A DNA stretch of 64,000 bases from a virus (IMGVR_UViG_3300032050_000002); one strand, 5' to 3'. Positions 4,598 through 12,653 are shown, counted from the first letter of the stretch. The notes: a model not told the origin generated them from the letters alone. Translations and numbers: made by a program.

Positions 4598-5575
4598 ATG
4601 AAAAATTTAGTATTTGTTAGTGCTCAACCGGATATTCCTTATTTTCATTGGCAATGTAAAATATATATTCATAATTTCATTGAAAAAGGTATTGACCCAA
4701 ATAATATACACATTTTATTTGGAATTATCTCACCAAATAATGAACCAACAAAAGAATCATTAGAGTTAAAAAAATTGGGGATTAATGTACATCATTATGT
4801 TGATGACAGAATTAAAAAGAAATACATACCAAGCATTAAACCTTTTTTAATTACAAAATGGTTAAAAGATAATCCGATATTAGGTGAATGTTTTTTCTTA
4901 CATGATGCCGATATTATATTTAGGGAATTACCAAAATTTGAAATTTTATTAAATGATAACATTACTTATCTATCTGATACTACTAGTTATATTGGATATA
5001 ATTATATTAATGATTGTTGTTTAAGATATGAGTCAAAACATCCAACATCTAAAAAAGGTCAATTATTACAAGAAATGGCTGATGTTGTTGGAATTGATGT
5101 TGAAAAAATTAAAGATAACCAATTAAATTCAGGTGGAGGTCAGTATATTATAAAAAATACAAATTGGGATATTTGGGATAAAATTTATAATGATTGTTAT
5201 CCTTTGTACGAACAAATGTTAAGTTATCAAAGAAGATTTCCAATAAGTCCTGGCGAAATACAATTTTGGACAGCAGAAATGTGGTCATTATTATGGAACT
5301 TGTGGAAATTTGGTATTGAAACCAAAATAACAAATGAACTTGATTTTTCTTGGGCAACAGACTCGGTATCTATTTATAATAGAAGACCTATATTACATAT
5401 GGCCGGAGTAACTGAAGATTTAAAATCTACAAAATTTTACAAAGGAGAGTACATTAATGTCAATCCTTTAGAAAAATTAAAAGAAAATCCAAATCATTTT
5501 AATTACGTAGATAAAAATAGTTCAACTATAAAATATATTGAAATTATGAAATCTATAATTAAAAAAGAATTATAA
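4598..5575 (+). CDS. GT-A glycosyltransferase resembling peptidyl-Ser alpha-galactosyltransferase / Hyp O-arabinosyltransferase (GT96/GT95-like)
   Basis: YFHWQ, IKPFLITKWLK, LHDADIIFR (DxD), GGGQY and WTAEMW motifs in the order recalled for plant SERGT1/HPAT. Confidence 0.65.
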   Translation: MKNLVFVSAQPDIPYFHWQCKIYIHNFIEKGIDPNNIHILFGIISPNNEPTKESLELKKLGINVHHYVDDRIKKKYIPSIKPFLITKWLKDNPILGECFFLHDADIIFRELPKFEILLNDNITYLSDTTSYIGYNYINDCCLRYESKHPTSKKGQLLQEMADVVGIDVEKIKDNQLNSGGGQYIIKNTNWDIWDKIYNDCYPLYEQMLSYQRRFPISPGEIQFWTAEMWSLLWNLWKFGIETKITNELDFSWATDSVSIYNRRPILHMAGVTEDLKSTKFYKGEYINVNPLEKLKENPNHFNYVDKNSSTIKYIEIMKSIIKKEL

Positions 5576-5594
5576 AGGTATTTATTGAGGAATT

Positions 5595-7913
5595 ATGGCA
5601 TCAGCTTGTTTTTGTATTAAACTTACGTTAAACTGTTCAGACTCACCGTCTATAAGTTTCAACATGACATTAGTTGGAAATCTTTACGGCGAAGCGTTTT
5701 ATTTGGGTAGTTATGATGGAAAAACCTACGCATTTTATTATTTAGGAGGACAGTGGAGATTTGTTAACATTTCTAACCCAACAACTTCCATATTTTTCGC
5801 AATATCAAATGTTGCAACCCCTTGTGATGTTTTATCTTCATTATGGCAACTAGGTGATTTAACTAATTTTACATATTGTTCAGACGATATTTTTGACGAC
5901 CCAATACTAACTATTGAAGAAGATTTTCCTAATTGTAATTTATTTCCGGGTGATTGTAGTTGTAAAATACTAAAAAATACTATTAAATGTGATGTATTCT
6001 ATCAAACTTGTGAAGGAAATATTGTACAACAATCAATAGATGCTAACACTGAAATAATAGGATGTTTTAAAGGAACTCCAATATTTTTTAGTCAAGGTGC
6101 CGGATACCCTTGGGGAACAGTTCAAAATTATACTTTGAGTAATTGCGATAATTTTTGTATTACCGGAACTTCAGCATGTTGTTTACAAATAAAAATCGAT
6201 TACGGACCTTCAACACAAATCACTAATATTAATCCTGTTGGAACTATCAATGGGTTACCAATCTATAATTTTATAAGTAACGATTTAACAAATGAATATA
6301 ATACAATAATATATTTTGATTCTAATACTAATCTTTGGAATTTTGATATACAAGAAGATAACTCATTTCAAACAATTGCAACATTAAATACAGGAAGTTG
6401 CCCATTTGGAGAGTGGGTGATTGATATACCTGGATTTTCAAAAACAATAGAAACCACTCAAGTAACTTGCCAATACCCTTCACCAACACCGACTCCAACA
6501 CCAACAATGACACCCGCACCACCAATAGTACCAATACCACCTTGTTTACAAGGGACTAATGAATGTAGCGTTGTAACAATATTCCCAATGTCTGTATTTT
6601 GTAAGGTAAAACAACCATCTGACCCAAAATCCTCAGACGGAACCGCAAGTTTAATAATTACTGGAGGAACTCCACCATATACAGTATTGTGGGATAATTT
6701 AAATATTGGTCAAACAATTTATAATTTAAATTTTGGAACTTACACCGCAACAGTGATAGATAATTATGGAGATTTTACAGCAAAAACAACTTGTGTTTTA
6801 GTTCCACCTAGCCCAACACCAACAATGACTCCAACACCAAGTCCTACAACACCTTTTACAGAATATACAATATGTTTTAAACTTACAACTTATAATTATA
6901 TTACATTTTTCCCTAATGGAGTTAAAAACGGAAAACCGTATTGGACTGGAACAACTGGAGGTGACGACTATGAATTAGTATGGAGCTCATCAACAAGTCA
7001 GTGGGTTTTAGACCCACCGCCAAGTGGAATTTATGTTTTAAGTAACGACGCTAGTTACCCACCAATAAATAATTGGGTTATATTAGGATATCCTTTACCA
7101 CCACCAATAGTTACAATCGGAACATGCCCACCACCACCAATAGGTAGATATAATTTAGGTTTACTTGGAGACCCCGCACCTGTGCCGGCTGAAATATTAC
7201 TAAATGCTAGTAAAAACGACCCAAGTTGCGGTTGTGACGGAAATATGACATTAATTGGTACAGGTGGATATCCACCTTATAGTTATTCTATTAATGGAGG
7301 ACTTTCATACAGAAACATACCTATATTTGATAATTTATGTAGTGGAACATATACCCCAACAGTTATTGATATTAGTGGTAATGTAACAACAATTAATGTT
7401 ATTTTAAATCCACCATCAAATCCGATTACATATACAGTAACTCTTAATACCACATCAACCATATTACAAAACACCGGAACACAATTAACAAAGGAATACA
7501 CAACATTAGTGAATGTAACACCACCATTAGAAAATGGAGTAACATTAACTTTTGATTTGTCACATACAAACATATTCAAAAGTTCCCCTAATACCGGAAG
7601 TACAACAAATATAACTTCATCAATTTTATATAAAAATGGATTAGTAGAGTCTGTAACTTTAACAGGAACAACTGAAGGAACTACATTTAACACTTTTGCT
7701 GGATGTCAAGGAAATATAATAAATATTAAATCAACTAATGATTCTTGGCAAAGTTTACAAATAACTAATTCAGACACAATATTGTTGGTAACAACAACAA
7801 CCATAATACAAAATGAAGTTATTAATTGTTATGTTGGAACAAGTGATGAAACTTTTTCAATTACAAACGCAACTTTACAAGGTTGTGGATGTTGTAATGT
7901 AATAAGTGGATAA
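5595..7913 (+). CDS. Cys-rich virion structural protein with SprB-like repeats and Pro/Thr linkers
   Basis: GTASLIITGGTPPYTVLW..GTYTATVID and [34 protein letters not shown] segments. Confidence 0.7.
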   Translation: MASACFCIKLTLNCSDSPSISFNMTLVGNLYGEAFYLGSYDGKTYAFYYLGGQWRFVNISNPTTSIFFAISNVATPCDVLSSLWQLGDLTNFTYCSDDIFDDPILTIEEDFPNCNLFPGDCSCKILKNTIKCDVFYQTCEGNIVQQSIDANTEIIGCFKGTPIFFSQGAGYPWGTVQNYTLSNCDNFCITGTSACCLQIKIDYGPSTQITNINPVGTINGLPIYNFISNDLTNEYNTIIYFDSNTNLWNFDIQEDNSFQTIATLNTGSCPFGEWVIDIPGFSKTIETTQVTCQYPSPTPTPTPTMTPAPPIVPIPPCLQGTNECSVVTIFPMSVFCKVKQPSDPKSSDGTASLIITGGTPPYTVLWDNLNIGQTIYNLNFGTYTATVIDNYGDFTAKTTCVLVPPSPTPTMTPTPSPTTPFTEYTICFKLTTYNYITFFPNGVKNGKPYWTGTTGGDDYELVWSSSTSQWVLDPPPSGIYVLSNDASYPPINNWVILGYPLPPPIVTIGTCPPPPIGRYNLGLLGDPAPVPAEILLNASKNDPSCGCDGNMTLIGTGGYPPYSYSINGGLSYRNIPIFDNLCSGTYTPTVIDISGNVTTINVILNPPSNPITYTVTLNTTSTILQNTGTQLTKEYTTLVNVTPPLENGVTLTFDLSHTNIFKSSPNTGSTTNITSSILYKNGLVESVTLTGTTEGTTFNTFAGCQGNIINIKSTNDSWQSLQITNSDTILLVTTTTIIQNEVINCYVGTSDETFSITNATLQGCGCCNVISG

Positions 7914-11259: not shown

Positions 11260-11279
11260 TTTTTAACTACCATTTTTTT

Positions 11280-12653
11280 TTATACCGAAATTGTTTGAAT
11301 CGGATTTACAACTAATAATCTAAAATTAACAATAGGTTGAACCATACCATACTGATACGTATTGGTATATATTTGTGTTAGTGATGATGTAGTACAAGGG
11401 TCACTGGGCACACCAACAAAACCGGCAACATTTTTATAAATTAAAGTATTAGATAAGTTTCTAACCTGAAGTAGTATTCTGTATGAAGGAGGATTAGGTA
11501 AAGAAATTGTGCCAAAAAAATTATCACCAGGACCACATTGAAGTAATAATTTAGTATTTAACTGAACCCAATTAACCCCAGGAACTGCTTGATTGTTTCC
11601 AAACAGATTGATAAGACTATAATCGCCTGTAAAATATGAATACCAAACAGAACCACTAAACGGACTTATTGAATCATCCAAATTAACAAAAACATTAAAT
11701 TCTGAATTTGATGGTCCTGGAATTGTAGTGGTTGTTGTTGATGATTGAAAAACAATTACAGATTGAGTACTGGTTGGGGTTGGGGTGTTAGTTGGTGTAT
11801 TAGTTGGAGTTGGTGTATTAGTTGGAGTTGGTGTATTAGTTGGAGTTGGTAAAACACAATTAGCACAACCACCGGCATTTGAATAACCATAAGGCCCACC
11901 CGTTATTTGAATATTATTACCACCCGAAACCTCGTCAACACTACCAAGATAAGAAATACATCTATCATTACCATCAACTTTTGCGTTGAATACCATGTAT
12001 TTTATTAAAGAACCACCTGAAGGGGTTGTTAAGTTTTGACTTGTATAGTAAAGAGTGCCATTAATACAATCTTGGAATTCTAAACTAGTAGGACATTTAA
12101 TAACAGCATCAACCACATTAAACTTAACATCACCTGAAAAATCACAATTTCTAATAACTTCAGGAGAAACTGTCGGAGTTACTGTTGGAGTAGGAGTTGG
12201 TGTTGGACTATAATTACTTAAAGTTGCATCAACATCAATAAACGGGCAAGGATTGGTTGAACTTGGAGTTGGTGTTTGTGTTGGAGTTGGAGTATTTGTT
12301 GGGGTATTACTTGGAGTTGGACTTACCAAACAATCAAAAATTGCATCAAAGTTAAATACGTCACAATTTAATGTTGGTGTAGGGGTAGGTGTAGGACATA
12401 GAGTAGGTATTAAATTATCTTCACATAAATCAGGACAAGAACTTGTGCAAGGATATTTACCTGACATAAGACAAGGACCTTCAATAGTATTAGATAAACA
12501 CCATTGATTATAAGTCGATGAAAAATAAATATAATAACTGGCGTTATAGTAAACATCGTAACTATTATACGAACTACCACTTTTAGTATAGTTACCATCA
12601 AAATCGTAACCAGTATTAACCACACAATAATCAGTATTTACACAAACAGGCAT
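11280..12653 (-). CDS. Cys-rich, Pro/Thr-repeat structural protein
   Basis: Four PT/PTN tracts between Cys-rich domains. Confidence 0.75.
11791..11850. repeat. 18-bp tandem repeat gttggagttggtgtatta encoding (NTPTPT)n
   Basis: Two full copies at 11803-11838 plus partial flanking copies. Confidence 0.9.

Follow-up and report, generated by a model that had tools for sequence, protein, structure and literature searches.

Plant and algal transferases of the HPAT, RDN and PLENTY (GT95) and the SERGT1/SGT1 (GT96) types are membrane-anchored enzymes of the Golgi and endoplasmic reticulum (ER) which transfer L-arabinofuranose or galactose from a UDP-sugar to hydroxyproline (Hyp) or Ser in extensins, while GT60 enzymes (Dictyostelium Gnt1/Gnt2, T. 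cruzi OGNT; PF11397) start mucin-type O-glycans on Thr-rich tracts. In the secreted Cellulomonas fimi proteins CenA and Cex, Pro-Thr (PT) box linkers between folded domains are O-glycosylated by the host machinery, which protects them against proteases. Phage-encoded glycosylation of virions is already known from mycobacteriophages; Freeman et al. 2023 (Cell Host Microbe) are said to have described it as the work of phage-encoded transferases, and it reportedly alters how antibodies view the particle. In the literature we found, glycosylation of tailed-phage particles by an enzyme of their own is documented experimentally for mycobacteriophages only. Here we analyze P0001, a predicted glycosyltransferase encoded in the virus record IMGVR_UViG_3300032050_000002 beside three genes for Cys-rich proteins (P0002, P0003, P0004) with PT and poly-Thr tracts. 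The window, as we call the whole stretch of 64,000 nucleotides (nt) studied, is the first 64 kb of this 107-kb IMG/VR record (CheckV ~37% complete); related phages are freshwater phage contigs of 270-320 kb, and the record is therefore a jumbo phage fragment.

We propose, at a probability of roughly 70%, that P0001 carries out cytoplasmic O-glycosylation of Thr in Thr-rich tracts of virion proteins. P0001 has a GT-A fold with a DxD motif, belongs to family PHROG 4417 and is kin to HPAT and SERGT enzymes, and genes of its family are tightly paired with Thr-rich tracts in many lineages. Mechanistically, P0001 would use a nucleotide sugar as donor and, while virions assemble or earlier, glycosylate the hydroxyl of Thr (perhaps also of Ser) within the (PT)n and poly-Thr tracts that P0002, P0003 and P0004 contain, thus giving rise to stiff, extended, protease-resistant and hydrophilic 'bottle-brush' spacers on the particle exterior that would resemble mucins and the PT boxes of bacterial cellulases. 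We infer that the acceptor is a protein and that the residue modified is most likely Thr, and we would expect the linkers to gain stiffness and resistance to proteases in this way. Thr is a better guess than Hyp because partner tracts often are Pro-free poly-Thr and no prolyl hydroxylase (PF13640) was found in the 107-kb record at its ~37% completeness; so Hyp, unlike in the plant systems, is probably not the acceptor. Unlike glycosylation of CenA and Cex, the scenario proposed here involves a virus-encoded, cytoplasmic enzyme.

Our main support is comparative and comes from orthologous virion proteins in phages with and without the enzyme, from loci in bacterial genomes and from domain fusions, the last two described below. 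The tail tube protein of Enterococcus phage phiFL1A belongs to the SPP1 gp17.1 family and has a homologue in 76 phage records. Both sampled lineages that carry the enzyme, phiFL1A and Lacticaseibacillus phage R3.3, bear a poly-Thr tail on the tube protein, which follows the conserved ...PGE(T/K)xG(D/E)(Y/F)... end, whereas such a tail is seen in none of the ten sampled phages without it (five Streptococcus prophages, SPP1, SplendidRed, Lactobacillus phiJL-1, ATCC8014 and phiLpTT2), three of which share their genus (Coetzeevirus) with R3.3. A similar relation holds for the capsid: in ATCC8014, which has no enzyme, the capsid protein ends with ...AIFSATPKA, whereas the open reading frame (ORF) of 305 amino acids (aa) just before the enzyme gene of R3.3, evidently the counterpart, goes on with ...TSATTTTTTKAPTTTTTSSHA. 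In Lacticaseibacillus phages, the ORF of ~305 aa ahead of the enzyme gene and another of tail tube size both close with ...TTTTT(S)SHA, a short motif placed behind the Thr run (L168:267-1184 and L168:3495-4121; also L102, L103, L111 and L124), and this common ending may serve both as a signal for recognition or for stopping.

In Che8-type mycobacteriophages, the capsid and tail tube subunits are reported to carry their glycans at the C-terminus (PMC12619734). The poly-Thr tails at capsid and tube C-termini in phiFL1A, R3.3 and Bacillaceae prophages (in the last by ORF size and order) are alike in placement, and in both systems a phage-encoded transferase lies in or beside structural genes, in the window beside fiber-like genes. 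Unlike in the Che8 type, a different enzyme family is involved, with no Mycobacterium phage among the 77 phage records that tblastn retrieves with P0001 (E < 1e-5), and the tracts in the window are internal PT linkers of large fiber-like proteins rather than C-terminal tails.

The pairing extends to bacterial genomes. From a scan of one genome per species we retained the 80 best loci, and an ORF counted as strictly poly-Thr if 8 residues included 6 or more Thr, or else 7 or more Thr plus Ser of which 4 or more were Thr. For the 36 loci with a short form of the enzyme (up to 370 aa, with at least 1.5 kb of sequence upstream), such an ORF lies within 3.5 kb in 32, is the one immediately upstream in 28 and has its run at the extreme C-terminus in 24. 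The corresponding counts for 32 loci with a long form (above 370 aa, in most cases ~580 aa and located on Bacteroidota chromosomes) are 4, 0 and 0, and only one in 562 background ORFs (at least 100 aa, more than 3.5 kb distant) contains poly-Thr. Long-form loci being mostly unpaired, the family is therefore not tied to Thr tracts everywhere, and the substrate of the long form may differ. Long forms of ~570-590 aa, which have an extra C-terminal half (with a GT2-like domain in one), are chromosomal in Chitinophaga, Pedobacter and Mucilaginibacter.

In total, the enzyme and poly-Thr genes are found together in at least ten gene contexts. The homologues of Enterococcus phiFL1A and Clostridium phiCTP1 directly follow the major tail (tube) gene and precede the tail chaperones, the tube proteins of both phages end in a poly-Thr tail and, among the annotated proteins of the complete phiFL1A genome, poly-Thr occurs on the major head and major tail proteins only. 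In Chryseobacterium phage MA9V-3, where the homologue lies between baseplate wedge and tail fiber genes, two ORFs just upstream have long poly-Thr/Ser linkers. Bacillaceae prophages have three upstream ORFs (~395, ~105 and ~210 aa), each ending in poly-Thr, which by size and order fit capsid, small head/connector and tail tube proteins. Further contexts are Staphylococcus Sextaecvirus and an Arcanobacterium phage (tail tube protein ending in poly-Thr, and an overlapping poly-Thr ORF too), the Lactobacillus Herelleviridae myovirus Bacchae (three poly-Thr proteins around the gene), Enterococcus Denvervirus 9183 (enzyme gene straight after the major head gene), contigs from Bacteroidota and gammaproteobacterial metagenome-assembled genomes and the 80 relatives of the jumbo phage. 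Hence the co-occurrence of enzyme and Thr-rich genes, which the first-pass annotation had put forward as a check, proves very strong across unrelated phages and prophages. The overlapping ORF, small and almost entirely poly-Thr, runs over the tube gene end in Staphylococcus phage SA2 (L170:4661-4924) and Arcanobacterium phage TPWB06 (L173:4720-4926) and looks as if it extended the tube protein through a programmed frameshift, in the manner of SPP1 gp17.1* but with a Thr-rich tail replacing the Ig-like domain.

In several of these phages the enzyme gene is thus placed in or beside structural genes, where it either directly follows the capsid gene or separates the tail tube gene from the chaperones, and in at least six phage lineages it is inside the late structural operon and outside lysogeny or accessory regions. 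This position is hard to reconcile with a role for P0001 in modifying a host envelope glycan (teichoic acid, lipopolysaccharide (LPS) or capsule) for superinfection block or serotype change, with the Thr tracts as plain flexible linkers. Some prophage transferases do modify host envelope glycans, the weaker fold matches of P0001 include GT8 and LPS transferases, and long-form relatives occur in chromosomal glycan-type clusters with epimerase and sulfotransferase genes. The family, however, is also present in lytic groups such as Herelleviridae, and envelope modification leaves unexplained why orthologous tube and capsid proteins bear poly-Thr tails only where the gene is present. So to our minds, such a role is distinctly improbable.

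A broader version of Thr O-glycosylation, to which we would give somewhat better than even odds, sees PHROG 4417 as the catalytic half of a widespread system in which a poly-Thr/PT tag together with an HPAT-like transferase would cover capsids, tails and fibers with mucin-like O-glycans. Its users would be phages of Firmicutes, Bacteroidota and Actinomycetota as well as freshwater jumbo phages, any virion protein could join by gaining a Thr-rich tail, and its origin would be shared with the plant and algal extensin enzymes. If so, virion glycosylation of the mycobacteriophage type would also be performed by a different and far more widespread enzyme family, reaching phages of Enterococcus, Staphylococcus, lactobacilli, clostridia and Bacteroidota plus abundant freshwater jumbo phages, with nothing more than a Thr run as simple and portable acceptor signal. 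This would matter for phage therapy (immune recognition, stability in serum and gut) and for dairy and fermentation phages, would bear on how virion mass spectrometry and cryo-EM densities are interpreted and might supply glyco-engineering with a bacterial enzyme that is soluble and comes with a short tag. A family lacking a function in PHROGs and Pfam would thereby receive one, and the plant extensin transferases could be viewed against a background of prokaryotes and viruses. Phages already in culture allow the claim to be tested directly. The literature searched, which included few subscription journals, held no paper on the PHROG 4417 family or on poly-Thr tails as glycosylation tags and no proteomic or glycostain data for any carrier phage. 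New here are the within-genus ortholog contrast and, as detailed below, the profile-profile link to PF23452, the neighboring PF23452 genes, the fusions with PqqD, GT60 and protein O-fucosyltransferase domains and the GT60 genes of related jumbo phages.

P0001 matches phrog_4417 (function unknown) at E 5.1e-71, with residues 6-320 corresponding to positions 3-291 of the 293 in the profile, and Pfam gives no match. PHROG 4417 is a large family (1,222 matches in 90% clusters, 924 representatives at 50% identity), and the 77 GenBank phage records found by tblastn (32-38% identity) come mostly from phages of Lactobacillus, Enterococcus, Staphylococcus, Lactococcus and Clostridium, plus one Chryseobacterium phage. 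The four phage-side motifs pointed out in the first-pass annotation are all present in P0001 and in the order given, namely YFHWQ..IHNF (residues 15-27), IKPFLITKWLK (80-90), LHDADIIFR (101-109) and WTAEMW (224-229), and they coincide with the most conserved columns in an alignment of relatives. With 56 relatives (30-89% identity) aligned, nine columns including D105 and H267 are invariant and D103, W18, Q19, W224, M228 and W229 are conserved in at least 90%. An AlphaFold2 model built on this alignment (predicted local distance difference test (pLDDT) 97.4; predicted template modeling score (pTM) 0.94) adopts a GT-A fold whose strand 1 begins at residue 5, and no hydrophobic or membrane segment is found in P0001 (top 19-residue Kyte-Doolittle mean 0.73). 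A soluble, cytoplasmic and metal-dependent GT-A glycosyltransferase is the best explanation for these properties of the model. GT95, GT96 and GT8 are retaining enzymes; by analogy, P0001 would be expected to retain the anomeric configuration, and its DxD motif together with His267 may hold Mn2+.

Among reviewed UniProt models, the top fold match of P0001 is Arabidopsis SERGT1, a peptidyl-serine alpha-galactosyltransferase (E 1.2e-10; template modeling (TM) score 0.60), followed by hydroxyproline O-arabinosyltransferases (HPATs; TM 0.60-0.63), while galactinol synthases, GT8, LPS transferases, UGGT and other GT-A enzymes reach TM 0.40-0.47. In the AlphaFold database (AFDB) cluster library, the best three matches are direct relatives without a name and the next ones algal 'HPAT-like domain' proteins; the nearest structures in the PDB are UGGT, glycogenin and GT8 (TM 0.45 or less), and matches in BFVD are uncharacterized phage relatives only, including Lactobacillus phage LP65 Orf49. 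Every top fold match is a GT-A enzyme, and the nearest named ones belong, as anticipated by the first-pass annotation, to GT96 and GT95 rather than to DNA- or LPS-modifying enzymes. P0001 thus resembles HPAT and SERGT enzymes in having them as closest named folds, in corresponding YxxWQ, KP, DxD, WxxxM and His motifs and in its association with low-complexity Ser/Thr/Pro-rich structural proteins. Unlike them, it has no membrane anchor and is predicted to reside in the bacterial cytoplasm, its likely acceptor is Thr, and its identity to them is 13-16%.

At the sequence level this kinship is remote. P0001 fails the Pfam threshold of PF23452 (HPAT), with no match at E up to 1, only one of the 56 relatives matches, and weakly (E 0.38), the PF23452 model finds nothing in the whole 107-kb record, and an Atlas viral cluster near P0001 has PF23452 in 10% of its members. 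Because the Pfam HPAT threshold is failed, P0001 is, judging by sequence, a distant relative of the plant enzymes that stands outside GT95 and GT96. Profile-profile comparison of the PHROG 4417 family alignment with an alignment of 35 bacterial PF23452 proteins (hhalign) supports remote homology, with a probability of 87% and E 3.9e-6 over 268 columns that span the whole domain. Here, SAQPDxPYFxWQ of PHROG 4417 pairs with FSTxDSPYMQWQ of PF23452, YIPSIKP with YPIYNKP, FxHDSDIIF with LLLDPDCVFR (the DxD motif), IQxWTAxMW with PxWESDMF and IxHNAGV with IIHYCQ. The four motif positions picked earlier line up with those of PF23452 proteins.

The fold matches also bear on DNA as a substrate, i.e. 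glycosylation by P0001 of hydroxymethylated bases in the phage genome to evade restriction, which we hold to be extremely improbable. The top matches include no transferase that modifies DNA, small temperate carriers have neither a hydroxymethylase nor other hypermodification genes in their annotation, and neither the structural-operon position nor the poly-Thr link would be explained, although phage transferases often act on DNA (PMC12619734) and the block in the window adjoins RuvC-like, primase and exonuclease genes.

PF23452 genes were found in four of 40 bacterial genomes with a PHROG 4417 relative (Myxococcales and Acidimicrobiia), the two genes being within a few kb of each other every time. 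Many bacterial PF23452 proteins (~380 aa) carry a C-terminal PqqD domain, which binds peptides and serves recognition of ribosomally synthesized and post-translationally modified peptides (RiPPs); annotated as 'PqqD family protein' only, they look like peptide glycosyltransferases. PqqD being typical of RiPP pathways, it may be envisaged that P0001 targets a small peptide or another non-virion substrate and that its nearness to Thr genes is a by-product of gene order. P0001 itself, however, has no PqqD domain, and poly-Thr capsid and tail genes repeatedly accompany the enzyme gene, on either side of it and in gene orders that are unrelated, which renders such a RiPP-like role highly improbable.

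Some long members of the family have their domain fused to the GT60 peptide GlcNAc-transferase (PF11397), to protein O-fucosyltransferase (PF10250) or to GT2. In the multi-domain proteins P0163 (L179:26-4135), P0171 (L178:689-3748) and P0154, the family domain is joined with PF11397, PF10250 and a discoidin domain, and GT_PLOD, sulfotransferase and epimerase genes are next to these fusion genes. GT60 is a family separate from P0001, which itself has no PF11397 match, nor was PF11397 found in the 107-kb record. A GT60 gene is present, far from the PHROG 4417 gene, in all four related jumbo phage genomes tested, three of which have a PT-tract ORF just upstream of it. Conceivably, P0001 only extends glycans, with a GT60-type enzyme adding the first sugar to Thr of the PT tracts in the jumbo phage and P0001 the next, and the fusions of both domains in single proteins elsewhere suggest that they act in one pathway. 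Against this, no GT60 or GT2 was found in five complete Firmicutes phage genomes carrying the family and the annotation of phiFL1A lists no other transferase, so that the family itself would start the glycan there unless a host enzyme does; moreover, HPAT and SERGT, the nearest named relatives, are initiating peptide transferases. From the Firmicutes carriers it therefore follows that the PHROG 4417 family probably can initiate glycans alone, and we regard a role for P0001 in extension only as unlikely. All four of these alternatives (envelope, DNA, small peptide and extension) explain much less of the evidence than Thr O-glycosylation does.

As to the candidate acceptors in the window, translation bears out that P0001 is flanked by genes for Cys-rich proteins with PT and poly-Thr linkers (31, 28 and 19 Cys in P0002, P0003 and P0004), and the linkers lie where they had been placed before, with one more in P0003 (Table 1). 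The tracts are of the (PT)n, PTNT, CPPPPPPD and poly-Thr types. Only four of 181 ORFs (at least 80 aa) in the 107-kb record carry such tracts and three of these are P0002, P0003 and P0004 beside P0001; clustering therefore exceeds chance. The fourth (56649-57452, + strand) has a nine-Thr run (MTNTTTTTTTTTKV) near its N-terminus; its true start probably is the Met just ahead of this run, and it could be another acceptor. The block that comprises the enzyme, P0002, P0003, the resolvase and P0004 is conserved across the 80 related loci, in which tract density peaks 2-8 kb 3' of the enzyme gene. The C-terminal 450 aa of P0002 are kept in 77 of the 80, P0003 in 74 with its linker position retained and the N-terminal 260 aa of P0004 in 60, often on far longer proteins with up to 37 tracts. 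Some P0004 counterparts are extreme mucin-like proteins of 1,160-1,750 aa with 15-37 separate Thr/Pro tracts (L007/L008 15182-20434 and L015/L016/L019 ~15576-19082, both on the - strand). Compared with its homologue in relative L020, P0003 has an extra Cys-rich module of ~95 aa between two poly-Thr tracts (residues ~630-728), and this difference in sequence suggests that domains may be gained or lost at linkers.

Whether these proteins are structural is where earlier claims stand less firmly. The first-pass annotation spoke of a phage that O-glycosylates its own tail/baseplate linkers in three Cys-rich structural genes; while the fold kinship and the pairing with Thr genes support the glycosylation part, a tail or baseplate identity of the neighbors is plausible but weakly shown. 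A virion role of P0002-P0004 is suggested because of their architecture, a borderline SprB repeat in P0002 (E 2.9e-6, slightly below the Pfam cut-off), the conservation of the block and the analogy with other phages. Searches of all three proteins against PDB sequences (phmmer and profile) gave noise only, the sole profile match being on the PT linker itself, and tblastn of P0003 against phages gave no matches.

Several observations weigh against Thr O-glycosylation of virion proteins by P0001. All support for it is genomic and structural in kind. P0002-P0004 have no PHROG or Pfam structural match; the P0003 model (41 homologues) reaches pLDDT 47 and was excluded from the fold search, and the idea that the N- and C-termini of P0003 jointly make up a P2 gpH-type tail-fiber N-domain (PF12571), hinted at by one weak structural match in the Atlas, found no support from hidden Markov models and is no more than a lead. 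The block in the window borders replication genes, with the RuvC-like gene inside and the primase directly after it, and its tracts are mostly PT repeats as opposed to the pure poly-Thr of the clearest partners elsewhere. In relatives, the GT60 beside PT genes could be the enzyme that serves the PT tracts. Some 32 long-form chromosomal relatives have no poly-Thr gene immediately upstream (four have one within 3.5 kb), and many of the 36 short-form loci are related prophages. Finally, when form and poly-Thr are compared on a tree of 82 family members, only 2-4 independent contrasts emerge, too few for significance; we therefore put weight on how many distinct gene contexts show the pairing, and on the ortholog contrast.

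Table 1. Coordinates of the enzyme gene, its neighbors and their Thr-rich tracts (positions in nt of the window).
Feature	Residues	Position	Strand	Basis
P0005, 924 aa, SHSEG-type repeats, fiber-like, upstream neighbor of P0001		1592..4366	+	phrog_25468 (function unknown), E 3e-23
P0001, 325 aa, predicted soluble GT-A glycosyltransferase, HPAT/SERGT-like		4598..5575	+	translation, no internal stop; phrog_4417; AlphaFold model
Codons for H102-D103-A104-D105, DxD metal and nucleotide-sugar motif		4901..4912	+	conserved in 56 relatives
P0002, 772 aa, Cys-rich modular protein, two PT linkers, candidate acceptor		5595..7913	+
P0002 PT linker	293-310	6471-6524	+
P0002 PT linker	403-423	6801-6863	+
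P0003, 905 aa, Cys-rich, PT/CPPPPPPD linker and poly-Thr tracts, candidate acceptor, possibly tail-fiber-like		7941..10658	+
P0003 linker including CPPPPPPD	189-251	8505-8694	+
P0003 poly-Thr tract	630-651	9828-9893	+
P0003 extra tract beyond those listed earlier	716-728	10086-10124	+
P0006, RuvC-like Holliday-junction resolvase, last gene of + strand block		10660..11259	+	phrog_159, E 1.5e-7
Terminator-like hairpin, two-way, between + strand block and convergent P0004		11254..11272
P0004, 457 aa, Cys-rich, four PT/NT tracts, candidate acceptor		11280..12653	-
P0004 tracts (the last runs into poly-Thr)		12366-12407, 12246-12326, 12162-12218, 11709-11852	-

With regard to the layout of the locus (Table 1), intergenic gaps in the + strand block from P0001 through P0002 and P0003 to P0006 are 19, 27 and 1 bp. 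P0006 is probably no part of the glycosylation function, and 3' of P0004 follow primase, exonuclease, SbcCD and sigma factor genes. No GenBank phage matches the region by megablast. Upstream, P0005 is a putative fiber protein purely by its repeat architecture. In the 230-bp gap (4366-4597) ahead of P0001, a small ORF of ~58 codons (MKLLKTVSKLVEESKARYEEA...) can be read by eye on the minus strand.

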